From assembly GCA_937907535.1 (NCBI GenBank), contig CALCID010000067.1, positions 1 through 43,120 of the forward strand: 43,120 nt of DNA. The letters are read 5' to 3'. Below, piece by piece: positions 13,294-33,009 of the stretch. The position numbers and the translations under genes were made by a program. Within the stretch, counting starts at the first letter, position 1; each line of letters begins with the position of its first letter. The notes beneath the pieces are model-generated. The model had not been told where the DNA came from. It saw nothing but the letters and a program-made list of their open reading frames with translations, and did not search any database. Source of the stretch: an uncultured bacterium. Its GTDB lineage: Bacteria > Gemmatimonadota > Gemmatimonadetes > Longimicrobiales > RSA9.

Positions 13294-13452
13294 GGGGGCA
13301 TCATCCCGCGCGCAAATCTATGCGTCGAAGCGACTTCGCTCCTTCACCCGGCGGGGGGTGAGGCGTTGATGCACAATAAAAGTCATAAAGTCTAACGGAA
13401 GGGGGAGGGGAGTACTAAACCGGTGTTCGGCGGCGGGGCATCATTATTCGTC

Positions 13453-13729
13453 AGGCTTCGCGGTAGGGCAACCCTGCCGGGTCGAGCACGGAGGGCAGCC
13501 TTCGCGGCGAGGCTGCGTCACCGGGTCGAGCACGAGCACGAGCACGTGCACGAGCACGAGGATGGGGTGACGTTCGCGGTGGCGCCGGATTCTTGGTCGG
13601 GCGGGGGTTCCTGGGCAGCCTTCGCGGTAGGGCTGCCACTCCGGGTCGAGCACGAGTACGAGGTCCACCTTCGCGGTGAGGCTTCGTCACCGGGTCGAGC
13701 ACGAGCACGAGCACGAGCACGTGCACGAG
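13453..13729 (+). repeat. Tandem array A: 4 degenerate copies of a ~50-67 bp repeat (CCTTCGCGG-N13-CCGGGTCGAGCACGAG(CACGAG)n), plus orientation
   Basis: Read directly from the sequence. The units start at 13453, 13491, 13613 and 13663. Each has a conserved CCTTCGCGG and CCGGGTCGAGCACGAG core. The 13-nt middle segment is variable and partly self-complementary. The CACGAG/CACGTG hexamer run varies in copy number between units. Confidence 0.85.
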
Positions 13730-14268
13730 GGGCGGGATGGCGTGTGGGCGGGTCGGGTGGGCGGGCGGGTTGGAGGAGGGTCGGGGTGTGTACGGTCCGG
13801 GAGGTGCACGGGAGGGATCCAGGCGGGTCGGTGACGCGGGCGCGAAGGTGTATGAGCACGCATCCGCCTACCGGTTACGACTACATGTATGGTGGGTGGG
13901 CCGAAGATTGGGCGGGGCCGAGCGGGTGCGTGGATTGAACGGGCAGGCTGGTCGTCGTGAGGGGGGTGCTCGAGCCGGAAGGCCGAGCAGACATGGTGGG
14001 AGAGGCCGCGTGGGAGACGCCGGCGTGCTCGTGGCGGTGTTCGCGTAGGACAGCGCGAGTGTGTGGCAGGATAGCGGCAGGCGGGTTTGGAGGGAGGCCG
14101 GGACCTACCGGGCGATGGGAGCGGCGAGAAGGATGGGGCGGGTTCGCGGTCCGTTCGGCGGGTTGTCCGCTGGCGAGAGGAAGCGGGCGCCCGGGCGCGA
14201 TCCGGCAGGTCGCTTCGCCCTGCGGCATGCACCCGGCGTCGTGGCTAGGGGGACGGACGCCGTGCCGG

Positions 14269-14964
14269 GAGGGCGCACCCTCGAGGGTGCCCGACCCGGA
14301 GGCTGTGTTCATGCGAAGGCGGCGGGCTACGGGTGCCTCGGCCGGCTGCTTGCCTTACGACGAGGGATCGAGCCGTGCCCGAGAACGTACTCGTATCTGC
14401 GGCCGCGCTCGACCCGGCAAGGTAGCACCTCCGCGAAGGTTACCCCGTGCACGTGCACGTGCACGTGCTCGTGCACGACCCGGAAAGGTTGTATTGCCGC
14501 GAGGGCGCACCCTCGAGGGTGCCCGACCCGGAGGCTGTGTTCATGCGAAGGCGGCGGGCTACGGGTGCCTCGGCCGGCTGCTTGCCTTACGACGAGGGAT
14601 CGAGCCGTGCCCGAGAACGTACTCGTATCTGCGGCCGCGCTCGACCCGGCAAGGTAGCACCTCCGCGAAGGTTACCCCGTGCACGTGCACGTGCACGTGC
14701 TCGTGCACGACCCGGAAAGGTTGTATTGCCGCGAGGGCGCACCCTCGAGGGTGCCCGACCCGGAGGCTGTGTTCATGCGAAGGCGGCGGGCTACGGGTGC
14801 CTCGGCCGGCTGCTTGCCTTACGACGAGGGATCGAGCCGTGCCCGAGAACGTACTCGTATCTGCGGCCGCGCTCGACCCGGCAAGGTAGCACCTCCGCGA
14901 AGGTTACCCCGTGCACGTGCACGTGCTCGTGCTCGTGCACGACCCGGAAAGGTTGTATTGCCGC
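14269..14964 (-). repeat. Tandem array B: three near-identical 232-bp units, each built from ~4 degenerate copies of the same repeat family in the opposite orientation and each carrying a 16-bp perfect palindrome GCACCCTCGAGGGTGC
   Basis: The sequence GAGGGCGCACCC recurs at 14269, 14501 and 14733, giving an exact 232-bp period. Units differ only by single substitutions in the (CGTGCA)n tract. The array ends 13 nt before the ATG at 14978. Confidence 0.9.
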
Positions 14965-14977
14965 GACGGTTGCCCCA

Positions 14978-15478
14978 ATGGAGGTCTCGTTGTTCGGATC
15001 CAGTCGTCTGTTGAGGTTGTTGTTCCTGGCGCTCGGGGTGGGCGGTTGCTCGGCGGGCGCGGGGGGTGGAGGGAGTGGGGATGTGCCCGAGCCCCGTGTA
15101 CGGGATGGGATCGCGTACCGGGCGGGGGTGGAGGTGCTGGAGCGCTACCCGGTGCAACTCCATGCGTGGGTCCGGGTGGAGAACCGGACGGACCGGGACG
15201 CGGACCTGACGTTCCCGGACGGGTGCGTGGTGCTGCTGGAGGCGCGGCGGGAGGGAGGGCGTGAGGAGTGGGTGCAGGCGCGGCAGGTGAGCTGCGTGGA
15301 GTCGGTGGTGCCGGTGCGGCTGGAGCCCGGGGAGGCGCGGGAGTACGGGGTGCAGGTCTCGGCCGCGGAGATCCTGGGGGACTCGCTCCCCGCGGGCCGG
15401 TACCGGCTGATGGCGGTGGTCCGTCCGCGCGGGGTGCGCGTGGAGGTACCCGCGGGGGTGGTGGAGCTGGCGAACTGA
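14978..15478 (+). CDS. Small lipoprotein of unknown function
   Basis: The ATG at 14978 is followed by a signal peptide with lipobox LGVGGC, then a beta-rich ~140-aa domain. It lies directly downstream of the 232-bp tandem array. Confidence 0.6.
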   Translation: MEVSLFGSSRLLRLLFLALGVGGCSAGAGGGGSGDVPEPRVRDGIAYRAGVEVLERYPVQLHAWVRVENRTDRDADLTFPDGCVVLLEARREGGREEWVQARQVSCVESVVPVRLEPGEAREYGVQVSAAEILGDSLPAGRYRLMAVVRPRGVRVEVPAGVVELAN

Positions 15479-15510: not shown

Positions 15511-15789
15511 CTACCAGTTGATGGTGCCGCGCTTGGAGGTGTCGATCTCCTCGGTCTGGCCGGTGCCGAAGAAGAAGGCCTCCATGTTGGCGGTGAGGAA
15601 GTCGCGCGCGGACTTTTCGCGGACGTCGAGGCCGTAGTGGTTGATGAGCGCGGTCTGGTAGCGGAGCCACTGGTCCCAGCAGCGCTGGCAGATCTCGCGG
15701 TGGATGCGTTCGCCGAGCTCGTTGCGGAGGGGCGGGCGCTCGATCTGGGGTTCGGTCTGTCCGCAGCGGGTGCAATTGATCTCGGACAT
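15511..15789 (-). CDS. yggX: Fe(2+)-trafficking / oxidative-damage protection protein YggX
   Basis: The 92-aa product carries CTRCG ... WDQWL ... ALINHYGLD, matching the YggX family signature and length. Confidence 0.8.
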   Translation of the reverse strand: MSEINCTRCGQTEPQIERPPLRNELGERIHREICQRCWDQWLRYQTALINHYGLDVREKSARDFLTANMEAFFFGTGQTEEIDTSKRGTINW

Positions 15790-18948: not shown

Positions 18949-19101
18949 CGTGCACGTGCTCGTGCTCGTGCACGACCCGGAAACGCAGCCCAACCGCGAA
19001 GGTTGCCCCGTGCACGTGCTCGACCCGGAAGCGCAGCCCTGCCGCGAAGGCTGTCCCCCGTTCACGACCCGGATAGGTAGCCCTACCGCGAAGGCTGCCC
19101 C
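18949..19101 (-). repeat. Tandem array D: 3 copies of the same repeat family in minus orientation; the last copy overlaps the 3' end and stop codon of the decarboxylase gene
   Basis: The reverse complement reads GGGGCAGCCTTCGCGGTAGGGCTACCTATCCGGGTCGTGAAC / GGGGACAGCCTTCGCGGCAGGGCTGCGCTTCCGGGTCGAGCACGTGCACGG / GGCAACCTTCGCGGTTGGGCTGCGTTTCCGGGTCGTGCACGAG(CACGAG)n. Confidence 0.85.
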
Positions 19102-20543
19102 TTCTCCAGCCAGTCCAGCACCCGATCCACGTCCTCCTTCCGGGTGCGGTGGTTCAGGATGCACATGCGCAGCGCGTACCGGCCGTGGATCCGGGTGGAC
19201 GAGATCATGCCGAGCCCGCTTTCGAGGAGCCCCCGGACGAAGGCGGCGTTCAGGTCCTCGAGCTCGGACTCGTCCATGGCCGCGCCGGCCGGCGGCACCC
19301 GCCGGAAGCACACGACGCCCAGGCTCGCGGGCGAGAGCAGCTCGAAGCGGTCGGACTCGCGGATCCGCCGCTCCGCATGCGCGGCCAGGTCGAAGGCGTT
19401 GTCGATCGCGGCGCGGAACCGCTCCACCCCGAAGACCTTCAGGGAGGTCCAGATCTTGAGCGCCCGGGAGCAGCGCGTGAGCTGGATCCCGTAGTCGCCG
19501 AAGTTGACCTCCCGGAGCTCCGCGGGCGCGTCGTCGTCCGGGGCCACGTCCTGGAGGTAGTCGGCGAACATGCTGAAGGTGCGGGGGAGCCGCGCGCCCT
19601 CCCTGACCAGGATGCACCCGGCCTCGTAGGGCTGGAACAGCCATTTGTGGGGGTCGAGCGTGATGGAGTCGGCGCGCTCGATCCCTTTCAGGAGCTGGCG
19701 GCCCCGGGCGGTCAGGACGGAGAAGCCGCCGTACGCCCCGTCCACGTGGTACCAGACGCCGTGCTCGGCGCAGACCTCGGCCAGCTCCCGGAGCGGGTCG
19801 ACGGCGCCGGTGCTGGTGGCGCCGGCGCTGGCGCACGCGAATAGCGGCCGGAGCCCGGCTTCCCGGTCCTCCCGGATCGCCCGGTCGAGGGTCTCGGGCG
19901 CGAGCCGGAACGCGTCATCGGTCGGGAGGACGCGGACGCGGTCCGGGCGGAAGCCGAGGGTCCGGGCGGAGCGCTCCATGGAGGAGTGGGTCTGGTCGGA
20001 GACGTAGACGACCAGGTCGTCCGCGTGGGCGCCGGCGAGGGCGGCGCGGGCGCAGACCAGGGCGGTGAGGTTCGCCACGGAGCCGCCACTGACCAGGGCC
20101 CCGGCCGCGGAGGTCGGGTAGCCGATCCACTCCTTGAACCAGTCGAGGACCACCAGCTCGACCTGGGTGGGCCCCGCGGACGCCAGCCAGGTGCCCTGGA
20201 ACACGTTGAACCCGGCGGCCAGCATGTCGGCCAGGATCCCGGGCCAGGTGGGGCAGCCGGGGATGAAGGCGAAGGCGCGGGGGTGGTCGTTCTTCCCGGT
20301 GAAGGGGAGAACGTCGGTCAGGAGCCGGTCCAGGACCAGGTCCGGGTCGGTGGGTCCGTCGGGCGGGGGCTCACGCAGCCGGCGCTCCATTTCTTCGCGG
20401 GTCGCGCCCCGCCAGGCGACGTCCGCGTCCAGCCCCGAGATCCGCTCGACGATGGTGTCGATGACCCGGTAACCGAGCCGGCGCATGGTTTCCGGGTCCA
20501 GCTCGAGGGCGTGGTCCGGCATCGGATATCCGAGCTTGGCCAT
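19083..20543 (-). CDS. PLP-dependent group II amino-acid decarboxylase (aromatic-L-amino-acid / diaminobutyrate / glutamate decarboxylase family)
   Basis: 486 aa with the PLP-lysine motif SITLDPHKWL and S-x-H (DQTHSS) region typical of group II decarboxylases. The last codons GQPSR-stop are encoded by a repeat unit. Confidence 0.85.
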   Translation of the reverse strand: MAKLGYPMPDHALELDPETMRRLGYRVIDTIVERISGLDADVAWRGATREEMERRLREPPPDGPTDPDLVLDRLLTDVLPFTGKNDHPRAFAFIPGCPTWPGILADMLAAGFNVFQGTWLASAGPTQVELVVLDWFKEWIGYPTSAAGALVSGGSVANLTALVCARAALAGAHADDLVVYVSDQTHSSMERSARTLGFRPDRVRVLPTDDAFRLAPETLDRAIREDREAGLRPLFACASAGATSTGAVDPLRELAEVCAEHGVWYHVDGAYGGFSVLTARGRQLLKGIERADSITLDPHKWLFQPYEAGCILVREGARLPRTFSMFADYLQDVAPDDDAPAELREVNFGDYGIQLTRCSRALKIWTSLKVFGVERFRAAIDNAFDLAAHAERRIRESDRFELLSPASLGVVCFRRVPPAGAAMDESELEDLNAAFVRGLLESGLGMISSTRIHGRYALRMCILNHRTRKEDVDRVLDWLEKGQPSR

Positions 20544-23534: not shown

Positions 23535-24533
23535 ATGCCCGAGGGCCGGTTGGCATTCCTGACGGGCGCGACCGGCTTCATCGGCTCGCGCCTCACCCGC
23601 CGTCTGGCGGAGGAGGGTTGGCGGCTGCGCTGCGCGGTCAGGGCCACGTCGGACACCGCGGATCTGGAGCGGTTGGGCGCGGAGATCGTGGTGGGCGACC
23701 TGCTGGACGTGGACTGGCTGGCGGGGGAGCTGGCGGGCGTGGACGTGGCGTTCCACCTGGCCGCGGTGTACGCGGTGGGGATCGTGGACGTGGCGGCGAT
23801 GGAGCGCACGAACGTGGGCGGGACGCGTGCGTTCCTGGAGGCGTGCGAGCGGGCGGGCGTACCGCGGGCGGTGTACGTGTCGAGCACCGTGGCGCTGGGT
23901 CCGGTGGTGGAGGGGGAGGGGGACGAGAACACGGAGAACGTGGGCCCGTTCCGTTCCCACTACGAGCGGACGAAGGTGGAGGCGCACCGGCTGGCGGTGG
24001 AAGCGCAGCGGCGGGGCCTGCCGGTGACGATCGTGTGTCCGGCGTACGTGTACGGTCCGGGCGATGGGGGGCCGGGCGCGGCGCTCATGGCGGACGCGCT
24101 GCGGGGCCGGATCCCGGGGTTCCCGAACCCGCCGGCGTGGTTCTCGTACGTGCACGTGGACGACGTGGCGGAGGGGATCCGGCTGGCGGCGGAGGTGGGC
24201 CGGGCGGGGGAGACGTACGTGCTGTCGGGCGAGCACTGCCGGGTGGACGAGTATCTCGGGCGCGCGGCGGCGCTGGCGGGGCGGCGGATCTCCCGCCTGC
24301 GCTTCCCGCCGGCGCTGGCGCGGCTGTCCGCCATGGTGTGCGACGGGATCTCGCGGGCGACCGGGCTGCGCTTCCCGCTCACGCGGGAGAATGTGGAGAC
24401 GGGCACGGGGTGGCGGTGGCTGCATTCGCACGCGAAGGCCACGGCGGAGCTGGGCTGGAGGCCGCGGTCGCTGGACGAGGGGCTTCCGGAGACGGTGGTC
24501 TGGGTGCAGCGGCACGTGTTGGGCCGGCGATGA
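23535..24533 (+). CDS. NAD(P)-dependent epimerase/dehydratase (extended SDR family)
   Basis: The ATG at 23535 has GAGGGG 7 nt upstream. The Rossmann motif LTGATGFIGSRL is present, and the catalytic Ser-Tyr-Lys context (SS ... YxxxK: YERTK) is typical of SDR epimerases. Confidence 0.8.
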   Translation: MPEGRLAFLTGATGFIGSRLTRRLAEEGWRLRCAVRATSDTADLERLGAEIVVGDLLDVDWLAGELAGVDVAFHLAAVYAVGIVDVAAMERTNVGGTRAFLEACERAGVPRAVYVSSTVALGPVVEGEGDENTENVGPFRSHYERTKVEAHRLAVEAQRRGLPVTIVCPAYVYGPGDGGPGAALMADALRGRIPGFPNPPAWFSYVHVDDVAEGIRLAAEVGRAGETYVLSGEHCRVDEYLGRAAALAGRRISRLRFPPALARLSAMVCDGISRATGLRFPLTRENVETGTGWRWLHSHAKATAELGWRPRSLDEGLPETVVWVQRHVLGRR

Positions 24534-24591
24534 CCGGTGCACGGGAGCAGAGAGGAGGTACGACCGGCAACCCTTTACGCGGCGGGGAACG

Positions 24592-25125
24592 ATGACCGAG
24601 CGCGCCACGTCGGCAAGAGCCATGAGTCCCGGGGAGCTGGGTGACAGCCTCGCGCGGTTCGTGTGGGAGAGCTTCACGGATTTCCTGGAGCGGGACCCGG
24701 CGGCGGGCGATGGTTCGCCGGGGATGGGCGCGGTGTCGATCCGGGACCTGGTCGCGGAGGAGTTGCTGATCCTCTTCCTGTGGGTGCACACGCAGGTGTG
24801 CCAGCAGGCGTTCGGGGGGCGCGCGGACCCGGCGCGGGTGCGGGCGGTGCTGGACGAGATGCACCGGGCGGTGTTCGAGGACCTGGAGGCGCGGGGCTTC
24901 TCCCGGGCGCAGCTCCCGCTCTTCGAGCAGCTCGTGAGCGCGCGGTACTCGGAGTACTACGCGGCGGCGTCCGGGCGGGCGGAGACGGTGGGGGAGGTGG
25001 CGGCTAGGCACGTGAGCGGCACGAAGCCGGTGCCTGCCTGGCTCCCGCGGGCGCTCGCGGAGGCGACGATCAGCACGGCGGGCCCGTTGCGGGACTACCT
25101 GGACGAGGTGGTGATCGCGGGTTGA
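24592..25125 (+). CDS. Hypothetical protein (~177 aa, helical)
   Basis: In an operon-like position 59 nt after the epimerase stop. The upstream 5' part of the long track ORF overlaps the epimerase in another frame and was rejected. Start uncertain (24592 or 24622). Confidence 0.45.
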   Translation: MTERATSARAMSPGELGDSLARFVWESFTDFLERDPAAGDGSPGMGAVSIRDLVAEELLILFLWVHTQVCQQAFGGRADPARVRAVLDEMHRAVFEDLEARGFSRAQLPLFEQLVSARYSEYYAAASGRAETVGEVAARHVSGTKPVPAWLPRALAEATISTAGPLRDYLDEVVIAG

Positions 25126-25165
25126 GCGGAGCCGTGCCCGTCGGGGCGCCCGGCGGGCCGTCGGC

Positions 25166-26155
25166 TCAGGGGCGGACGGCGGTCAGGAGCTGGCGCTCCC
25201 GCAGCGGATCGAGGTCTTCCACGCGCACGTCGCCGAACCCGGCGTCGGCGAGCCACTCCCGATAATCCTCTTCCGAGTACGTATCCCCACCCTCGGTACG
25301 GAGCAGCATCACGATGGCGAAGCGCGCGGCGCGCGGGCTGCGGCCGCGCACGAAGTCCGCGATGGCGACGACGCCGCCCGGGCGCATCACGCGGCACACC
25401 TTCTCGAGGAGCGCGCGGTTTGCCGCGGGCGGGTAGGCGTGGGTGATGTTGCTGATGAGCGCCAGGTCGAAGGGCCCGTCGGGGAGCGGGTCGTGGAAGA
25501 AGTCTCCGGCGGCGAGGTGGAGGCTCTGGATGTCCCGGAGGCCGTAGGCGTGGGAGACGTGGTCGATGACCTCGGCGCGGTCGTAGAGGGTGGTCTCGAC
25601 GCCGTTGCGCACGAGCTCACGGGCGTAGAGGCCGGGTCCGCCGCCCAGGTCGAGGGCGGTGCGGGCGTCCGGGATCCGTTCGAGGCAGAGCCGGACCACG
25701 CGCCGCACCCGTTCCGCGGGGGGCGCGGCCATGGCGGCCATGAACCGGGCGATGGCGGCGCGGGAGTCATCCGTGGCGGGCGGGGCATCCGGCGCGCCGG
25801 TCCGGAGCACGTCCGGGAGCCGGGTCCAGGCGCCGAGGAGGTTCAGCCAGTGGCCGAGCCCGCCGCCGATGTAATCGGCGGAGTCCGGGTCCGCGAGCCG
25901 GCGGCGGGCGGCGTCGGTCAGGGCGTATCGGCTCTCGCGCTCGGTGAGGAGGCCGGCTTCCTCGAGGACGGGGAGCACGATGCCGACGGCGCGGGCGTCC
26001 AGGCCGACGCGGCCGGCGAGCTCGGCGGGGGTGGCGTCGCCCGTGGCGAGGCCGCGGAAGATGCCGGCGGCCTCGGCCGCGGCGATCGTGACCACGATTT
26101 CGGCTTCGTCGCGCAGTTCGTTGAGGGCGTCGAGGAGCGCGTCAGCCGTCTTCAT
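25166..26155 (-). CDS. Class I SAM-dependent O-methyltransferase (with N-terminal dimerisation/wHTH-like domain)
   Basis: 329 aa. SAM motif I LDLGGGPG, with acidic (ETTLYDRAE) and hydrophobic motifs spaced as in plant-type/bacterial OMTs. The ATG at 26155 overlaps the upstream zinc-ribbon ORF by 14 nt. Confidence 0.75.
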   Translation of the reverse strand: MKTADALLDALNELRDEAEIVVTIAAAEAAGIFRGLATGDATPAELAGRVGLDARAVGIVLPVLEEAGLLTERESRYALTDAARRRLADPDSADYIGGGLGHWLNLLGAWTRLPDVLRTGAPDAPPATDDSRAAIARFMAAMAAPPAERVRRVVRLCLERIPDARTALDLGGGPGLYARELVRNGVETTLYDRAEVIDHVSHAYGLRDIQSLHLAAGDFFHDPLPDGPFDLALISNITHAYPPAANRALLEKVCRVMRPGGVVAIADFVRGRSPRAARFAIVMLLRTEGGDTYSEEDYREWLADAGFGDVRVEDLDPLRERQLLTAVRP

Positions 26156-26384
26156 GGGGTCCCGGGCGCTCGGGCAGGTGCTCGCCGGGGCCGCGCTTGA
26201 ACCACTCGAAGGCCGTGCGGCAATGGTTGCACCAGTAGGTGGCCACCGAGAGCGCGGAGCCGAAGGGCGAGTGCAGCTCGGTCTCCCGGCCCCGGCAGAA
26301 GGGGCACTCCACGCTCGCGGGGAGGCCGTACTCCGTCGCGCGGTAGACGGCGTCCGGGTTCACGTCAGTCGAGCCGGAAAGCAC
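26142..26384 (-). CDS. Small zinc-ribbon protein (CPFC ... CNHC), likely the detached C-terminal zinc-finger module of PaaD
   Basis: 80 aa with two CxxC pairs (CPFCRG and CNHCRT). It overlaps the paaC stop and the methyltransferase start, indicating translational coupling. The GTG at 26384 has GGAG 9 nt upstream. Confidence 0.45.
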   Translation of the reverse strand: MLSGSTDVNPDAVYRATEYGLPASVECPFCRGRETELHSPFGSALSVATYWCNHCRTAFEWFKRGPGEHLPERPGPHEDG

Positions 26385-27165
26385 GGTTCAGGTCTCCGCG
26401 CACGCGGGCGATGGTCTCCGGGTCCGGCCCCTCGGTGGAGACGCGGCGGCTCGACTCGTTGAAGCCGCCGAAGTCCGGCGGCTCGGCCGGGGAGAAGTCC
26501 GAGCCGACCCGTTCCAGGAGCGGTTGCACGGCGGCGATGAAGCGCTGGCGCAGCTCGGAGCCGGCGGCGTCCACGACGCGCTGCCGGACGAGCCCGGCCG
26601 CCCGGGGCGAGTCCGGGCCGAACCAGCGGAGGAGGCCGGGCAGGACGCGTTCGGCGGAGGCGCGGAGCGCGGCCCGGGCGACGTCGCCGGAATCCGCGAC
26701 ACGCCGGAACCAGGCCTCGCCGTGCGCCGCGTGGAACCGCTCCTCCTCCAGCATCTTCTCGACGCGCTGCCGAACCGGCGCGTAGCTCGTGCCGCGCAGC
26801 GCCTCGAGCTGGAGTGAGAGCGCGGTGTCCGCGAACGCGTTCAGCGCCACCAGGTCCGTCCACTCCGCCGCGGGCCGGTCCAGCGCCTCCATGCTGAAGT
26901 ACGCGGACGGCTCCCGGCCGTGCTCCAGCATGACCACGTCCTCGCCGAAGTCCCGGAGCAGCGAGTAGAGGAGCCGGGCGTGGCCCCACTCGTCCTGGGC
27001 CATGGATGCGCACGCGATCCCGGCCTCCAGCTCCGGCGCGCCCAGGATCCATTCCGCGTAGCGCATCCCGAGCAGCCGCTTGCTGTCCGCCAGGACCAGG
27101 ATCAGGTCCCGGATCGCGGCGCCGGTCTCCGCGTCGAGCGCAACGGTGGGTTCGACGGTGGCCAC
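26365..27165 (-). CDS. paaC: 1,2-phenylacetyl-CoA epoxidase subunit C (PaaC)
   Basis: ~266 aa ferritin-like fold lacking full di-iron ligands, as in PaaC (ASMAQDEWGHARLLYSLL). The GTG at 27165 has GGGAGG 5 nt upstream, 1 nt after the paaB stop. Confidence 0.7.
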   Translation of the reverse strand: MATVEPTVALDAETGAAIRDLILVLADSKRLLGMRYAEWILGAPELEAGIACASMAQDEWGHARLLYSLLRDFGEDVVMLEHGREPSAYFSMEALDRPAAEWTDLVALNAFADTALSLQLEALRGTSYAPVRQRVEKMLEEERFHAAHGEAWFRRVADSGDVARAALRASAERVLPGLLRWFGPDSPRAAGLVRQRVVDAAGSELRQRFIAAVQPLLERVGSDFSPAEPPDFGGFNESSRRVSTEGPDPETIARVRGDLNRAFRLD

Positions 27166-27166
27166 C

Positions 27167-27388
27167 TCAACCTCCCGCGGCCGTAGCCGCACGCGCGGGC
27201 TCCACGTCCGCGCGGTTGAAGACCTCGATGAAGCGGTCCCGCGGAACGATCCACATGTCGAACCACTTCTCCTCGTCGTACTTGCTGTAGGCGTAGACCC
27301 GCGCCAGGGCGTCATCCGGCGCGTTCAGGTTGCCGATGTGGCGGAGCGGCTCGCCGCGGCTCTTGCGGGCAAAGACTTCGTACACCAT
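27167..27388 (-). CDS. paaB: 1,2-phenylacetyl-CoA epoxidase subunit B (PaaB)
   Basis: 73 aa. MVYEVFARKSRGEPLRHIGNLNAPD ... WIVPR matches the PaaB family pattern (EVF, HxGS/NxxAPD, Y, W-V). Confidence 0.8.
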   Translation of the reverse strand: MVYEVFARKSRGEPLRHIGNLNAPDDALARVYAYSKYDEEKWFDMWIVPRDRFIEVFNRADVEPARAATAAGG

Positions 27389-27417
27389 GGCTCGTTCGGT
27401 TCGCGGTTCCCGCGGGG

Positions 27418-27831
27418 TCAGGCGGCCACGCCGAACTGGCGGAGCAGTTCCCGACCCTTGTCGGTCAGGCGTTCGCGGGTCCAGGGCGGGTCCCAGACCA
27501 CGTTGATGACGACCTCGTCCACGCCCTCCTCGCGGAGCAGCCGGTCCCGCACGTCGTCGCTGATCATGTCCATGCACGGGCACGCGGTGGCGGTGAAGGT
27601 GAGGTCCACCGCGACCCGGCCGCCGTCGCGGCGGATGCCGTAGACGAGGCCGAGGTCCACCACGCTGATGGGGAACTCCGGGTCCCGCACGTCCTCGAGG
27701 GCCTGCCAGAGCCGGGCCACGGAGGGATCGGCCGGGCCCGGGCCGGTGGCCATGGACGGGGAGCCGGCCGCCGGGGCGTCGCCCGAGGAAGGCGACGTCG
27801 CGCCCGCCGCGTTCCCGGCGCGCGCCTCCAT
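27418..27831 (-). CDS. DUF59/MIP18-family protein, i.e. the N-terminal domain of PaaD, encoded as a separate gene between paaA and paaB
   Basis: The C-terminal ~105 aa (LWQALEDVRDPEFPISVVDLGLVYGI ... TATACPC ... VVWDPPWT) match DUF59 and PaaD. The start is uncertain: the ATG at 27831 gives a Gly/Ala-rich leader and the ATG at 27753 gives the bare domain. Confidence 0.6.
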   Translation of the reverse strand: MEARAGNAAGATSPSSGDAPAAGSPSMATGPGPADPSVARLWQALEDVRDPEFPISVVDLGLVYGIRRDGGRVAVDLTFTATACPCMDMISDDVRDRLLREEGVDEVVINVVWDPPWTRERLTDKGRELLRQFGVAA

Positions 27832-27869
27832 GCCGGCCGCGGCCCCTTCCGCGCCGGTCGGGCCGCCGT

Positions 27870-28814
27870 TCACGCCGCCTCCATCAGCCGGGCGAGGCTG
27901 CCGTGGCTGCGGCGGATCGACTCGACGTACCGCTCGTTCATCGGACCGCGGGCCTTCCAGCGCTGGAAGACCTGGTCCCAGGTGATCTCGCCCTCCTCGA
28001 AGAGCCAGCGCTTCGCCTCCGGGTCGTACTCGCACGGGAAGGGGTAGTCGAGCACGTACTCGCCCTTCGCCTCGTCGTAGTGGGCCGGGACCCGGATCCC
28101 GATCGACTCGCAGAGCGGGACCGTGGACTGCATCCAGACCTGGCGGAGCTGGTCGTTCGTGAGGCCTTTCAGCCGGTACTCGAGCTGGCCGCTGTGGCGC
28201 TTGAGGTTGTCCGGCAGCCCGAACCACTCGAGGGTCATGGGGAACATCCAGTCGACGGCGCGCTGGAGTCGTTCCCGGGCCTCGCCGCCCGCCTGGGCGA
28301 GCCGCCGCATCCAGACCTCGCCGTGCCGGAGGTGGAACGTCTCCTCGAGGTCGACCTTGACCAGGGCGCGCTTGAGCGGGCCGTAGCTGGTGTTGCGGTA
28401 GACGTCGCTGAGGAGCGTGATCCCGGCGCGGTCGAAGAACCCGTTGGCGACGACGAGCTCCACCCAGCTCTCGAGCGGCTGGTCGAACCCGTAGGGGTGC
28501 TTGAACTCGTGGGGTTCGCGGTCGTAGAGGAGCTGTTCCTTGCTGAGCCCCATGTCCTCCAGGAGCCGGTACGCGATGTTCGCGTGGGCGAGCTCATCCT
28601 GGATGATGGCCACGGCGGAGACCATGGTGTTGGTGGAGGGGGCGTGCTGGGCGGCGCCCCAGTAGGCGGGCGCGCTCATCAGCTCGGTGTCCGCCTGGAC
28701 GAGGAGCTGGGTGATGATGGCCTTGCGGTACCCCTCGGTCATCTCGTCGGGCGACTCGAGGATGTAGCCTTCCTGGACCTTTTTCTTGAGTTCTTCGTCG
28801 GTGAACCGGCTCAT
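27870..28814 (-). CDS. paaA: 1,2-phenylacetyl-CoA epoxidase catalytic subunit A (PaaA)
   Basis: 314 aa from the ATG at 28814 (GAGG 6 nt upstream). Di-iron ferritin-like ligand motifs (DELAHAN..., E ... EETFHLRHGE) and the length fit PaaA. The upstream ~750 aa of the long track ORF is antisense to the PBP gene and was rejected. Confidence 0.85.
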   Translation of the reverse strand: MSRFTDEELKKKVQEGYILESPDEMTEGYRKAIITQLLVQADTELMSAPAYWGAAQHAPSTNTMVSAVAIIQDELAHANIAYRLLEDMGLSKEQLLYDREPHEFKHPYGFDQPLESWVELVVANGFFDRAGITLLSDVYRNTSYGPLKRALVKVDLEETFHLRHGEVWMRRLAQAGGEARERLQRAVDWMFPMTLEWFGLPDNLKRHSGQLEYRLKGLTNDQLRQVWMQSTVPLCESIGIRVPAHYDEAKGEYVLDYPFPCEYDPEAKRWLFEEGEITWDQVFQRWKARGPMNERYVESIRRSHGSLARLMEAA

Positions 28815-28967
28815 AGGCGCCTCGTCGGTCGAACGCTCGTTCGAGTCCCCATAGTACGCCGCGGGGGTGAGGACGTCAAGATGAAGGCCGCGGGCGGGGG
28901 AGGCCAGGGTGGGCGTGGGGCGGGAGGGGTGGCGGGTGGCCTCGACCTTGCCCGGGAGCGGGGATCG

Positions 28968-31484
28968 ATGGGAGCCGGGAAGGGAACGGACGGTCGGCGG
29001 GCGGGCCGGGCGCTGGCCTGGGCGCTTCCACCGCTGGTGCTGGTGGTGATGGTGTCGTGGGTGCTGTGGCAGAACTGCGGCCTGGCGGGATGCCCGGACG
29101 TGGAGCTGCTGCGGGGGTACGTGCCGGAGGAGGCGTCGGTGGTGGTGGACCGGGAGGGGCGGGAGCTGGCGAAGCTGTACCGGGTGAGGCGTACGGTGGT
29201 GCCGCTGGACTCGCTGCCGCCGTACGTGCCGGCGGCGGTGGTGGCGGTGGAGGACCGGCGTTTCTGGGAGCACGGCGGCGTGGACTGGCAGCGGGTGGTT
29301 GGGGCGGCGCTGGTGAATCTGCGGGCGGGGCGTTTCCAGCAGGGGTTCAGCACGATCACGATGCAGCTGGCGCGGAACCTGTTCCCGGACCGGCTGCCGG
29401 CGCACGAGCGGACGATCTCGCGGAAGCTCGCGGAGATGCGGGTGGCGTTCGAGATCGAGGCGAAGTACGACAAGAAGGAGATCCTGGAGCTCTATCTGAA
29501 CCAGATCTATTTCGGGAACGGCGCCTGGGGGATCGACGCGGCGGCGGGCGAATATTTCGGGAAGCGGGCGTCGGAGCTGACGCTGGCGGAGGCGGCGCTG
29601 CTCGCGGGGATCGTGCGGGCGCCGTCGCGGCTGAATCCGCGGGTGAACCCGGATTACGCGGTGGGGATGCGGAACGTGGTGCTCCGGCGGATGGTGGAGC
29701 AGGGGCTGGTGTCGGTGGTGGAGGCGGAGGCGGCGTCGCGGGAGGAGTTGAAGCTGGCGCGGGACCGGGTGGACGTGGTGGAGCCGGCGGCGTACTTCGT
29801 GGAGCAGGTGCGGCGGCAGGTGGAGGCGCGGTTGGGGGAGGCGGTGTACACGGGCGGGCTGCGGATCCGGACGACGCTGGATCTGCGGGTGCAGGAGGTG
29901 GCGGAGGAGGAGCTGAGCCGTCAGCTCCGGGCGATCGAGTCGGGGGAGCTGGGCCGGTACACCCGGCCGGTGTACGCGGGGCCGCGGGAGGATGAGGAGC
30001 CGGGTCCGTACTCGCCGTATCTGCAGGGCGCGGTGGTGGTGCTGGACGCGCGGCGTGGGGACGTGCTGGCGTGGGTGGGGGGGCGGGACTTCCGGGACTC
30101 GAAGTTCGACCGGGTGGTGCAGGCGAAGCGTCAGACGGGGAGCGCGTTCAAGCCGTTCGTGTACGCGGCGGCGCTGGCGGCGGGCTATCCGCCGACGACG
30201 ATCCTGGATGACGTGCCGATGCGGATGGAGCTGGCGGGGGGTCAGGTGTGGGCGCCGCAGAACTTCGGGGGGAGCTACGCGGGTCGGATCACGATGCGGC
30301 AGGCGCTGGTGCAGTCGCGGAATGTGGCGACGGTGCGGCTGGCGCAGCGGGTGGGGCTGGAGGCGGTGCTGGATCTGGCGGGCCGACTGGGGCTGAACGG
30401 GTTGCCGGCGGTGCCGTCGGTGGTGATCGGTTCGGGTGCGGTGACGCTGCTGGATCTGACGGCGGCGTATGCGGCGTTCGGGCGTGGCGGGCGGCGGCCG
30501 GTGCCGCGGCTGATCCTTAGCGTGAAGGACCGGCGGGGCCGGGAGCTCTGGCCGCGGGCGCCGGAGCCGAAGCGGGTGCTGGATCCCGGGGTGGCGTTCG
30601 TGGTGACGGACCTGATGCGGGACGTGGTGGACCGGGGGACGGCCACGTCGATCCGGCGGGTGGGTTACTGGGGCCCGGCGGCGGGGAAGACGGGGACGAC
30701 GAACGATGCGACGGACGTGTGGTTCGTGGGGGTGACGCCGGAGCTGGCGGCGGGGGTGTGGGTGGGGTTCGACCGGCCGCGGACGGTGGTGCCGGGGGCG
30801 ACGGGCGGGGAGGTGGCGGCGCCGATCTGGGGCCGGATCATGCGGCGGATCGCGCCGGCGGATGCGCCGGGCTGGAGCCCGCCGCCGGGGGTGGAGGTGC
30901 GGGAGGTGGACGAGTGGGGGAACGTGGTGGCGCCGGGCTGTTACGTGGTCGGGCCGACGCGGCCGGAGTACTTCCTGGCGGGGACCGCGCCGCCGGCGCG
31001 GTGCGGTGGCGGGTATGCCCGGGGGTGGGGAGGCCGGTCGCCGGGGGACACGGTGGACCTGCCGGGCACGCCGCAGGAGGAGGCGTTCCATCGGCGGGTA
31101 TGGCGCCGGTTCTTCGGTGCCGAGCCGAACACGGGGGAGGCGGGCGCGGGGCGGGGGCGGGCACCGGCGGCCCCCACGGACAGCGGCGGGCTCCTGGGCC
31201 GGCCCGTGGACACGGTCCGGGCGCGCCCGTCGGAGCGCGAGCCGCGGGGGGAACGGCGCCGGGAGGAGGCGGAGGAGCGACCGCCGGACACGGTTCGCGA
31301 GCGGGGTGGCGGTGCGCGTCGTCCGGCGGAGCCGGCGCGGCCGGACACGGTGCGCCCTCCCGCCTCTCCGCCGGCGGGCGAGGGTGCGGAGCGCCCCGCG
31401 AGGCGGGACCGGCCGCGGCGGCTCCTAGGCCGTCCCGTCCCGGACCGGGCGCCGCCGGGCGCGCCGGTCGTGCCGCCGCCCTGA
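28968..31484 (+). CDS. Class A penicillin-binding protein (PBP1A-type: transglycosylase plus transpeptidase) with ~150-aa Pro/Arg-rich C-terminal tail
   Basis: TM anchor, GT51 motifs (EDRRFWEHGGVD, GFSTITMQLARN, RKLAEM), and transpeptidase SxxK (SAFK), SRN and KTGT motifs. The start is the ATG at 28968; the ATG at 28881, with GAGGA 7 nt upstream, is an alternative. Confidence 0.8.
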   Translation: MGAGKGTDGRRAGRALAWALPPLVLVVMVSWVLWQNCGLAGCPDVELLRGYVPEEASVVVDREGRELAKLYRVRRTVVPLDSLPPYVPAAVVAVEDRRFWEHGGVDWQRVVGAALVNLRAGRFQQGFSTITMQLARNLFPDRLPAHERTISRKLAEMRVAFEIEAKYDKKEILELYLNQIYFGNGAWGIDAAAGEYFGKRASELTLAEAALLAGIVRAPSRLNPRVNPDYAVGMRNVVLRRMVEQGLVSVVEAEAASREELKLARDRVDVVEPAAYFVEQVRRQVEARLGEAVYTGGLRIRTTLDLRVQEVAEEELSRQLRAIESGELGRYTRPVYAGPREDEEPGPYSPYLQGAVVVLDARRGDVLAWVGGRDFRDSKFDRVVQAKRQTGSAFKPFVYAAALAAGYPPTTILDDVPMRMELAGGQVWAPQNFGGSYAGRITMRQALVQSRNVATVRLAQRVGLEAVLDLAGRLGLNGLPAVPSVVIGSGAVTLLDLTAAYAAFGRGGRRPVPRLILSVKDRRGRELWPRAPEPKRVLDPGVAFVVTDLMRDVVDRGTATSIRRVGYWGPAAGKTGTTNDATDVWFVGVTPELAAGVWVGFDRPRTVVPGATGGEVAAPIWGRIMRRIAPADAPGWSPPPGVEVREVDEWGNVVAPGCYVVGPTRPEYFLAGTAPPARCGGGYARGWGGRSPGDTVDLPGTPQEEAFHRRVWRRFFGAEPNTGEAGAGRGRAPAAPTDSGGLLGRPVDTVRARPSEREPRGERRREEAEERPPDTVRERGGGARRPAEPARPDTVRPPASPPAGEGAERPARRDRPRRLLGRPVPDRAPPGAPVVPPP

Positions 31485-31857: not shown

Positions 31858-33009
31858 ATGCGGATGCTGGTATTGGGCGGCGGGCTACAGGGTTCGGCCT
31901 GCGCCTACGACCTGCTGAAGAACGAGAAAGTCGAGCGCGTCGTGCTCGCGGACCTGAACATCGACCGGATCCCGCCGTTCCTGCGGCAGCTCGCGAACGA
32001 TCCGCGGCTGGAGCTGGTGCGGGTGGACGCGCGGGACGAGGAGGCGGTGTCCAGGGTCATGCAGGGCGTGGACGCGTGCATGAACGCGCTGCCGTACTAC
32101 TTCAACCTGGACATGACCCGGCTCGCCGTGCGGAACGGCGTCCACTACTCGGACCTGGGCGGGAACACGGAGATCGTGTTCCGGCAGCAGGAGCTGGATG
32201 CGGAGGCGCGGGAGCGCGGGGTGAGCGTGATCCCGGACTGCGGTCTGGCGCCGGGGATGGTGAACATCCTGGCCGCGGCGGGGATCGCGGAGCTGGACGA
32301 GCCGGAGTCGGTCCGGATCTTCGTGGGCGGGCTGCCGCAGGAGCCGGAGCCGCCGTTGAACTACCAGATCGTGTACTCGATCGAGGGCGTGCTGGACTAT
32401 TACACCACGCGCTCCTGGGTCCTGCGGGACGGGGAGCCGCGGCAGGTGGACGCCCTGACGGAGATCGAGCCGGTGGAGTTCCCGGAGCCGGTGGGGACGC
32501 TGGAGGCGTTCCACACGGCGGGCGGGCTGTCGACGCTGCCGTGGACGTACCGGGGCCGGCTCAAGACCATGGAGTACAAGACGCTGCGGTACCCCGGGCA
32601 CGCGGAGGCGATGCGGGTGATCCGGGATCTCGGGCTGCTGGGCCTGGATCCGGTCCAGGTCAACGGGCAGGAGGTGGTGCCGCGGAAGGTCTTCATTGCG
32701 TGCGTGGAGCCGCGGCTGCGGAAGGAGGACGGGCGGGACCTGGTGGCGCTGCGGGTGGTGGTTTCGGGGAAGCGTGGCGGCGAGCCCCGGCGGATCACCT
32801 ACGACCTGCTCGACTTCTACGATGAGGCGGCGGGGATCAGCGCCATGGAGCGGACCACCGGGTTCTCGCTCTCGGTGACCGGGCAGATGCAGGTGGACGG
32901 CCGGATCACGGCGCGGGGCGTGCACACGCCGGACCAGTGCGTGCCGGCGGAGGCGTACATCGCGGAGCTGGAGGGCCGCGGGATCCGGATCCGGCGGAGC
33001 GACGGCTGA
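31858..33009 (+). CDS. Saccharopine dehydrogenase-like NAD(P)-binding oxidoreductase
   Basis: The ATG at 31858 is preceded by GGAGGG. The N-terminal Rossmann stretch MRMLVLGGGLQGSACAYDL is present, and the overall length and pattern fit the saccharopine dehydrogenase / carboxynorspermidine synthase-like family. Confidence 0.7.
   Translation: MRMLVLGGGLQGSACAYDLLKNEKVERVVLADLNIDRIPPFLRQLANDPRLELVRVDARDEEAVSRVMQGVDACMNALPYYFNLDMTRLAVRNGVHYSDLGGNTEIVFRQQELDAEARERGVSVIPDCGLAPGMVNILAAAGIAELDEPESVRIFVGGLPQEPEPPLNYQIVYSIEGVLDYYTTRSWVLRDGEPRQVDALTEIEPVEFPEPVGTLEAFHTAGGLSTLPWTYRGRLKTMEYKTLRYPGHAEAMRVIRDLGLLGLDPVQVNGQEVVPRKVFIACVEPRLRKEDGRDLVALRVVVSGKRGGEPRRITYDLLDFYDEAAGISAMERTTGFSLSVTGQMQVDGRITARGVHTPDQCVPAEAYIAELEGRGIRIRRSDG

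Follow-up and report, generated by a model that had tools for sequence, protein, structure and literature searches.

The question raised by this locus is which enzyme is encoded by a set of genes that resemble those of phenylacetyl-coenzyme A (phenylacetyl-CoA) epoxidase but lie without the PaaE reductase and the pathway genes of the textbook system. The genes belong to contig CALCID010000067.1 of an uncultured bacterium of the Gemmatimonadota, from which a stretch of 43 kb with 73% G+C was analysed (hereafter the window). Six consecutive genes on the minus strand, at 25166-28814, encode a PaaA-like protein, a stand-alone DUF59 protein, a PaaB-like protein, a PaaC-like protein, a stand-alone zinc ribbon and an S-adenosylmethionine (SAM)-dependent O-methyltransferase. 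We consider the first five of these genes (hereafter the module) to encode a non-canonical PaaABC-type multicomponent di-iron oxygenase, most likely an aryl-acyl-CoA ring epoxidase with an unlinked electron donor, and we would put the probability of this reading at roughly 0.6. The module is a divergent variant of a known enzyme system and is already loosely annotated in public databases.

Subunit identities and the two parts of PaaD

Genes were called by third-position GC framing and translation, raw lists of open reading frames being mostly noise at such a G+C content, and the junctions between the genes were read directly. Together with Pfam, this placed all six genes on the minus strand and confirmed the gene order that had been proposed in an earlier reading of this DNA made from the letters alone (hereafter the sequence-only reading). 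All five module proteins, and the methyltransferase as well, pass the Pfam gathering scores, which for the module families are 28.5 for PF05138, 27 for PF06243, 23.5 for PF01883 and 27 for PF23451 (the scores obtained are given in Table 1). With the NCBIfam models, on the other hand, the PaaA-like protein reaches 127.8 bits against TIGR02156 (cut-off 280), the PaaB-like protein 33.9 bits against TIGR02157 (cut-off 85.45) and the PaaC-like protein 96.7 bits against TIGR02158 (cut-off 133.35), and all three are missed; the DUF59 protein and the ribbon score 69.7 and 32.8 bits respectively against TIGR02159 (cut-off 108.15). The subunit identities given by the sequence-only reading, for which a check with TIGR02156-02159 and PF01883 had been proposed, are right; Pfam and NCBIfam both back the five domain assignments, with the NCBIfam matches lying under their cut-offs.

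The structures of Escherichia coli PaaA match the PaaA-like protein at E ~ 2e-30 with ~ 30% identity. The di-iron ligands of the E. coli protein are E42, E72, H75, D126, E155 and H158 (PMC4498308), and all six positions are kept in the PaaA-like protein, as E44, E74, H77, D128, E158 and H161. Furthermore, K103 and F108 of E. coli PaaA, which have been described as a door residue and a phenyl-orienting residue respectively (PMC4498308), both align with retained residues. The PaaC-like protein holds five of the six di-iron ligand positions (E59, H62, D113, E142 and H145), the first Glu being replaced by Arg, and these positions do not vary among some 83 homologues despite an overall identity of 44%. 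In the solved canonical PaaC the first ExxH is lost, with Leu and Gln found there, and the PaaC-like protein scores only 37-39 bits against solved PaaC compared to 57 bits against E. coli PaaA.

The DUF59 protein and the ribbon match profile positions 1-89 and 101-144, respectively, of the 146 positions of TIGR02159 and are therefore the two parts of canonical PaaD, the first corresponding to its N-terminal half and the second to its C-terminal domain. Hence the split of PaaD into a DUF59 gene placed between paaA and paaB and a detached ribbon gene, as described in the sequence-only reading, is real. The DUF59 protein bears a variable low-complexity N-terminal extension of ~ 50 aa (amino acids). 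Among the Gemmatimonadota loci described below, the DUF59 motifs DPE-P-S and T-x-T-x3-CPC and the four Cys of the ribbon (CPFC...WC..C) are conserved at 95% or more. A role of the ribbon in carrying electrons, like a rubredoxin, was also considered; none of the rubredoxin models matched it, and this role survives only as speculation.

Similar arrangements are known from haloarchaea. The haloarchaeal NCBIfam models comprise NF041867 for PaaB, NF041868 (paad_haloarch) for a PaaD of 127 positions made of DUF59 only, and NF041869 (paae_haloarch) for a 'PaaE' which is a zinc ribbon of 56 positions. Since these models describe a DUF59-only PaaD and a separate ribbon, the split PaaD is already catalogued. 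Haloarchaeal-type Paa and the module have in common the DUF59-only PaaD, the separate small zinc-ribbon protein and the lack of a flavin reductase in the cluster, but the module proteins fall under all three cut-offs, with 33.4 bits for NF041867 (cut-off 150), 111.8 bits for NF041868 (cut-off 180), which is the best NCBIfam match of the DUF59 protein, and 33.6 bits for NF041869 (cut-off 100). Genes for paaABCD have been reported in Haloferax alexandrinus (PMC10694973).

A side observation concerns the PaaB-like protein, which shows a weak match to TIGR04031 (29.7 bits, cut-off 57). This is the Htur_1727 family of candidate precursors of ribosomally synthesised and post-translationally modified peptides, partnered with radical-SAM enzymes, and the match hints that the family is related to PaaB.

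Relatives of the module and their gene contexts

A one-genome-per-species scan, with a 6-member alignment as query, found at least 536 loci encoding a relative, of which the best 80 were analysed; all 80 belong to the Gemmatimonadota. The order A-DUF59-B-C-ribbon is kept in every one of them as far as the contigs reach, and the PaaB-like protein is present in 78 of the 81 loci scanned for it (L001-L081). Across the 80 loci the median identity to the window is 80% for PaaA, 66% for PaaB, 58% for DUF59, 57% for the ribbon and 44% for PaaC. For comparison, the neighbouring genes show medians of 54% (PBP1A), 51% (decarboxylase dependent on pyridoxal phosphate, PLP) and 83% (cold-shock protein). 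Among the best 120 relatives of the PaaA-like protein listed, identities range from 79 to 88% and the names are those of Gemmatimonadota or Longimicrobiales.

Beyond this phylum, an exhaustive search of representatives of 50%-identity clusters yielded no more than about ten full-length clusters scoring over 190 bits; beyond these the scores fall to ~ 110 bits, the level of E. coli PaaA. The near clusters include PaaA proteins from Dormibacteraeota (51% identity to the window), Bacillus sp. M6-12 (51%), Haloarchaeobius (42%) and Paenibacillus (41%), and all of them stay under the TIGR02156 cut-off with 65-116 bits, whereas more distant canonical representatives (P0203, P0225, P0237 and P0252) pass it with 283-447 bits. 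In a neighbour-joining tree the window PaaA groups with the near clusters, apart from canonical PaaA, and the haloarchaeal PaaA-like protein P0284 (42% identity) falls in the same clade. The suggestion made in the sequence-only reading that the oxygenase may not be a canonical phenylacetyl-CoA epoxidase is supported by both the sub-cut-off scores and the separate clade.

Several of these relatives are linked to acyl-CoA chemistry by the genes around them. In Bacillus sp. M6-12 the same five-gene order is flanked by a family III CoA-transferase, a short-chain dehydrogenase/reductase, a crotonase, a metallo-beta-lactamase (MBL)-fold protein, a PaaK-family ligase (248 bits, cut-off 646), a second ligase and a 4HBT thioesterase. 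A Dormibacteraeota-type contig displays the same order and, besides a TetR regulator, carries a crotonase as well as a PaaK-family ligase. The Haloarchaeobius locus (L083) differs from the window in that its order is A-B-C-ribbon, its DUF59 gene being detached and beside a 2Fe-2S ferredoxin, with a thioesterase, a ligase and a crotonase also within 6 kb; in the window, DUF59 lies between A and B and no such pathway genes are linked.

The richest set of contexts comes from an unnamed sister clade, represented by P0122 (58% identical), with which metagenomes from soil, marine and other sources were scanned to give 80 loci (L090-L169). These loci show the identical five-gene order, 50-66% G+C and a PaaA 55-60% identical to that of the window. 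A crotonase adjoins the module in 27 of the 32 sister-clade loci that exceed 9 kb; as a rule it comes directly behind the ribbon, and in L105 the two genes share 4 nt. In L090 there are, in addition, an upstream second crotonase, a hexapeptide-repeat (PaaY-like) protein, an AMP-ligase and a 4HBT thioesterase. Some sister-clade loci are orphaned too; in L138, for instance, the next gene after the module is that of RNase PH. The sister clade and the Gemmatimonadota clade thus have the same order but differ in the linked crotonase, ligase, thioesterase and PaaY-like genes, which are absent from the latter. The gene order that the sequence-only reading had singled out as non-canonical is indeed so, but its implied rarity does not hold: a large clade has this layout as its standard, with occurrences in 80 of 80 Gemmatimonadota loci, in the 80 sister-clade loci and in single Bacillus and Dormibacteraeota-type loci.

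A different setting is observed in Paenibacillus sp. UMB4589-SE434 (L084 6141-12073), in which A-DUF59-B-C directly follow an adenylation enzyme, a carrier protein and a fused PabA/PabB-like gene, and no ribbon gene was called. This context suggests use on a carrier-bound substrate of aminobenzoate type in a biosynthetic setting.

When compared to the canonical PaaABC(D)E of E. coli, Klebsiella and Pseudomonas (TIGR02156-02159; PDB 3PW1 and 4IIT), the module has the same Pfam families for A and C, for B and for both halves of D, the same pair of A/C paralogues with a small bridging B, the six PaaA di-iron ligands and the K103- and F108-aligned residues, and its relatives are likewise linked to crotonases, PaaK-family ligases and hot-dog thioesterases. 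It differs by its ~ 30% identity, by the order A-D(N)-B-C-D(C) instead of A-B-C-D-E, by having PaaD as two genes, by the five ligand positions kept in its PaaC-like protein where solved PaaC has lost the first ExxH, by the absence of PaaE and of Lys at the K68 column, and by the absence of linked paaK, paaG, paaZ or beta-oxidation-like genes both in the window and within 10 kb in the 80 Gemmatimonadota loci. BoxAB, the benzoyl-CoA epoxidase, is also a di-iron enzyme acting on an aromatic CoA thioester, and its reductase is separately encoded and loosely associated, but BoxB has neither the A/C/B subunit set nor DUF59 or ribbon partners. No BoxB or BoxA model of Pfam or NCBIfam matched any module protein at E <= 0.01.

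Electron supply, proposed function and a possible core role

The absence of PaaE, noted by the sequence-only reading for 8 kb on either side, holds for the whole 43 kb. Indeed, no FAD_binding_6, NAD_binding_1, Fer2, AMP-binding or ECH domain was found by Pfam in any called gene of the window, and tblastn with the ligase, crotonase, thioesterase and ferredoxin genes of the relatives gave nothing there. Neither paaE nor paaK lies just outside the operon, whose limits are set by the divergent PBP1A gene on one side and a convergent gene on the other, and the 43 kb contain no PaaK. PaaE-type reductases are likewise missing from the called genes of the relatives' loci L001 and L082-L085, and no PaaE-like gene was found near the sister-clade module in the flanks of L105 and L090 (Pfam) or among the genes scanned in L138.

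A 'lysine bridge' near the di-iron site has been proposed to pass electrons on from PaaE (PMC4498308). PDB 3pvr and 4ii4 show a single K/Q difference, at residue K68, and from this lone difference we infer that the K68 column corresponds to the bridge. At this column Lys is found in 11 of the 12 canonical-clade PaaA representatives checked (Arg in P0255), whereas the PaaA-like protein of the window has Ile and its clade has I, L, V, A or S throughout. The loss of the lysine fits the clade-wide absence of PaaE.

By analogy with the E. coli enzyme, the PaaA-like protein, with its complete di-iron site, would be the catalytic subunit and would pair with the PaaC-like protein, the two being bridged by the PaaB-like protein, probably in an (ACB)2-type complex. 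This complex would most likely epoxidise the aromatic ring of an aryl-acyl-CoA thioester, for which the best guess is phenylacetyl-CoA or something closely similar. The DUF59 protein and the ribbon, as judged from PaaD and SufT, probably take part in the maturation of the metal centre and not in catalysis, and electrons would come from an unlinked ferredoxin or reductase. In the Gemmatimonadota the five genes are a stand-alone operon in a housekeeping neighbourhood, and the downstream pathway genes, such as those for the crotonase isomerase and the ligase, would have to lie elsewhere in the genome.

The epoxide isomerase PaaG is a member of the crotonase family. Acyl-CoA epoxidase chemistry is favoured because the coupling of the module to crotonases is recurrent and often translational, because linkage to PaaK-family ligases and hot-dog thioesterases is found repeatedly, and because the PaaA-like protein has kept its di-iron ligands as well as the residues that align with K103 and F108. 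Several observations weigh against it. Every subunit lies well below the NCBIfam equivalog cut-offs. The ligases beside the relatives' modules reach 248 and 212 bits compared to a PaaK cut-off of 646, and therefore the substrate may not be phenylacetyl-CoA even there. Furthermore, a CoA ligase, crotonase, thioesterase, CoA-transferase, ferredoxin or reductase is found within 10 kb in none of the 80 Gemmatimonadota loci; given that the 43-kb window is also without linked CoA genes, the supporting pathway context is missing in exactly this phylum. Finally, no experimental study of any member of the clade was found in the literature searched: searches pairing Gemmatimonadota or Gemmatimonadetes with phenylacetate, phenylacetyl-CoA, PaaA or PaaK gave nothing relevant, and those on the haloarchaeal epoxidase only a transcriptome table.

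The missing linkage leads to the alternative that the same complex has been recruited in the Gemmatimonadota to a different core role, with a substrate unrelated to phenylacetate catabolism. Such a role would explain both the orphaning of the module from CoA-pathway genes, most sister-clade loci having linkage of this kind, and the strong conservation of the catalytic subunit, since PaaA-like identity (80%) is comparable to that of the cold-shock protein and far from the 51-54% of the PBP1A and PLP-decarboxylase neighbours. The housekeeping character of these neighbours (PBP1A, methionine aminopeptidase, CspA and, in L001, IF3) points in the same direction, as does the orphaning of sister-clade loci such as L138. 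However, a conserved PaaA beside a poorly conserved PaaC is what is expected of a catalytic and a structural subunit, so that a new function is not needed to account for it, and K103 and F108 still have their counterparts. Moreover, the closest outgroups (51-60% identity) are all found in acyl-CoA contexts, scattered pathway genes are common in these genomes, and no alternative partner gene on the same strand is conserved beside the module. A change to a core role is hence unlikely in our view, though by no means negligible, and an aryl-acyl-CoA epoxidase supplied by genes elsewhere in the genome remains the preferred reading.

A broader variant is that the clade may deliver electrons or assemble its metal centres differently from the textbook enzyme, and that in the Gemmatimonadota it may be a core oxygenase with another substrate. 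The loss of K68, the five of six ligands in the PaaC-like protein, which could form a second metal site, and the free 4-Cys ribbon are compatible with different electron or metal handling, but as a whole this proposal seems doubtful to us.

The matter bears on how genomes are read, as PaaA and PaaC serve in genome surveys as markers of phenylacetate-degrading potential (e.g. PMC13186573) and annotation pipelines label these Gemmatimonadota proteins "phenylacetate-CoA oxygenase". Given the separate clade, the sub-threshold scores, the lack of a reductase and the lack of linked pathway genes, to infer phenylacetate catabolism in the Gemmatimonadota from these genes alone is unsafe. In addition, the presence of PaaD as two separate proteins is a natural experiment that could help settle the long-open question of the role of PaaD.

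As a side observation, a YggX-type protein of Fe(2+) trafficking and oxidative-damage protection is encoded ~ 10 kb from the module in the window, with an NF003817 score above the cut-off, and ~ 3 kb from it in L001 (16022-16300).

The operon, its O-methyltransferase and the rest of the window

The cluster is otherwise an ordinary, intact operon (Table 1). The scan of 24500-29200 gave a single promoter-like site (0.1 expected from shuffles), which precedes the paaA-like ATG by ~ 37 nt and falls within the 222 bp between this gene and the divergent PBP1A gene, and no terminator-like site inside the gene cluster. The genes are tightly packed. The GTG start of the DUF59 gene was taken where it overlaps the paaA stop by 4 nt (GTGA), and the GTG start of paaC lies 1 nt after the paaB stop and 5 nt after a GGGAGG motif. 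According to the sequence-only reading, the ribbon gene overlaps both the paaC stop and the methyltransferase start. The second overlap is real, the methyltransferase ATG lying 14 nt inside the ribbon gene, but on the other side the ribbon GTG at 26363 comes one base after the paaC stop (26365-26367) and the two genes abut; an alternative GTG at 26384 is the only start that would overlap paaC.

Table 1. Coordinates of the module genes, the operon boundaries and selected other genes in the window
Feature	Position	Strand	Remarks
PaaA-like, catalytic di-iron subunit (by analogy)	27870-28814	-	314 aa; PF05138 205 bits
Stand-alone DUF59 protein (canonical PaaD N-terminal half)	27418-27873	-	PF01883 63.3 bits
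PaaB-like bridging subunit (by analogy)	27167-27388	-	73 aa; PF06243 33.7 bits
PaaC-like partner subunit	26365-27165	-	266 aa; PF05138 143 bits
Stand-alone 4-Cys zinc ribbon (canonical PaaD C-terminal domain)	26142-26363	-	73 aa; PF23451 Zn_ribbon_PaaD 56.5 bits
SAM-dependent O-methyltransferase	25166-26155	-	329 aa; PF00891 Methyltransf_2 62 bits; N-terminal winged-helix dimerisation region
Sigma-70-like promoter candidate TTGACG-17-TACTAT	28851-28879	-	consensus match only
PBP1A gene, divergent operon boundary	29037-31484	+	
167-aa gene, convergent operon boundary	24622-25125	+	
PLP-dependent decarboxylase	19083-20522	-	
Saccharopine/carboxynorspermidine-dehydrogenase-like gene	31858-33009	+	
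YggX-type protein	15511-15789	-	NF003817 85.9 bits

In this one lineage the methyltransferase is translationally coupled to the operon, and the sequence-only reading had taken its co-transcription as a hint that the oxygenase may use another substrate than phenylacetyl-CoA or feed a tailoring pathway. In such a case oxygenase and O-methyltransferase would be a tailoring pair of the hydroxylate-then-methylate kind, with a non-phenylacetyl substrate or a place in a biosynthetic pathway. The 14-nt overlap without a terminator-like site between the two genes speaks for such a pair. So does the presence of the methyltransferase at the same position and with the same overlap in L086 and L087, two short contigs from close relatives; the arrangement persists there at 82% identity of the protein and is thus not a one-off assembly artefact. 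The Paenibacillus module, with its adenylation-enzyme, carrier-protein and PabAB-like neighbours, shows, moreover, that the clade can occupy biosynthetic settings. Nevertheless, the methyltransferase is absent from all 80 related Gemmatimonadota loci and the window holds no other biosynthetic genes. The methyltransferase family is itself common in the Gemmatimonadota (at least 120 homologues, mostly 50-59% identical), and four other homologues (L089, L170, L171 and L172; 50-59%) lie in unrelated neighbourhoods, while in L088 a 58% identical homologue is found 9.4 kb downstream of the ribbon gene, inside a variable island. Since the methyltransferase stands beside the module only in very close relatives and its other homologues lie elsewhere, the association is recent and local; and given its absence from the 80 loci and the unrelated contexts of its homologues, it cannot define the substrate of the module. 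The methyltransferase is hence a lineage-specific 3' addition and not part of the conserved system, which makes a tailoring pair quite improbable.

The spot just 3' of the ribbon gene is a variable insertion site, where the window has only the O-methyltransferase and most loci have nothing. In L088 (900-13700; Longimicrobiales contig DASVDG010000029.1) an island of ~ 12 kb occupies the gap between the ribbon gene and the convergent 167-aa/HpnA-like genes, and contains an outer-membrane beta-barrel protein, an ATP-binding cassette (ABC) transporter, three methyltransferases, an MBL-fold protein and a RES-Xre toxin-antitoxin pair. In L089 (9398-9562) and L170 (9738-9902), two unrelated Gemmatimonadota contexts, a 54-aa Zn_ribbon_8 gene precedes the methyltransferase homologue, the one in L089 giving a faint Zn_ribbon_PaaD match. 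This succession echoes the ribbon-then-methyltransferase pairing of the window, although it may be coincidence.

That the split PaaD is a sequencing frameshift, as the sequence-only reading had allowed for, or a mis-assembly, or that the module is a decaying pseudogene cluster, is virtually impossible, as the two halves lie ~ 1.05 kb apart with intact paaB and paaC between them, no frameshift was found, all frames are open with coding-type third-position GC, the functional motifs are conserved as described above, and the identical architecture is present in more than 150 independent loci of several phyla. The check was prompted by the metagenome-type nature of the contig, and nothing was found that speaks for an artefact.

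The rest of the window, read gene by gene, encodes an ABC transporter, a GMC oxidoreductase, peptidases, a two-component system, a patatin-like protein, the PLP-dependent decarboxylase, methionine aminopeptidase, the cold-shock protein, an HpnA-like epimerase, the saccharopine-dehydrogenase-like protein, an extracytoplasmic function (ECF) sigma factor, OsmC, an SLT domain protein and a Band-7 protein. No RNA element was found in the window, either with Rfam or by a tRNA scan.

The nearby PLP-dependent decarboxylase was considered as an aromatic amino-acid decarboxylase and rejected as such, its best models being L-2,4-diaminobutyrate and aspartate decarboxylases. Of the 81 loci L001-L081, 51 have it in the vicinity of the module and 30 have the saccharopine/carboxynorspermidine-dehydrogenase-like gene there. 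The two genes together seem to serve polyamine metabolism and to have no relation to the oxygenase.

Finally, ~ 1.9 kb of the window at 13300-15100 show no convincing coding frame and a lowered G+C content of 0.68-0.69. This region contains a 232-bp tandem unit in 3.0 copies at 14263-14966, the copies being 99-100% identical and each carrying a (CGTGCA)5 run, and shorter, inverted related copies with (CGAGCA)5-6 at ~ 13450-13730, none with an Rfam or tRNA match. The repeat region could represent a recent amplification or an assembly artefact.

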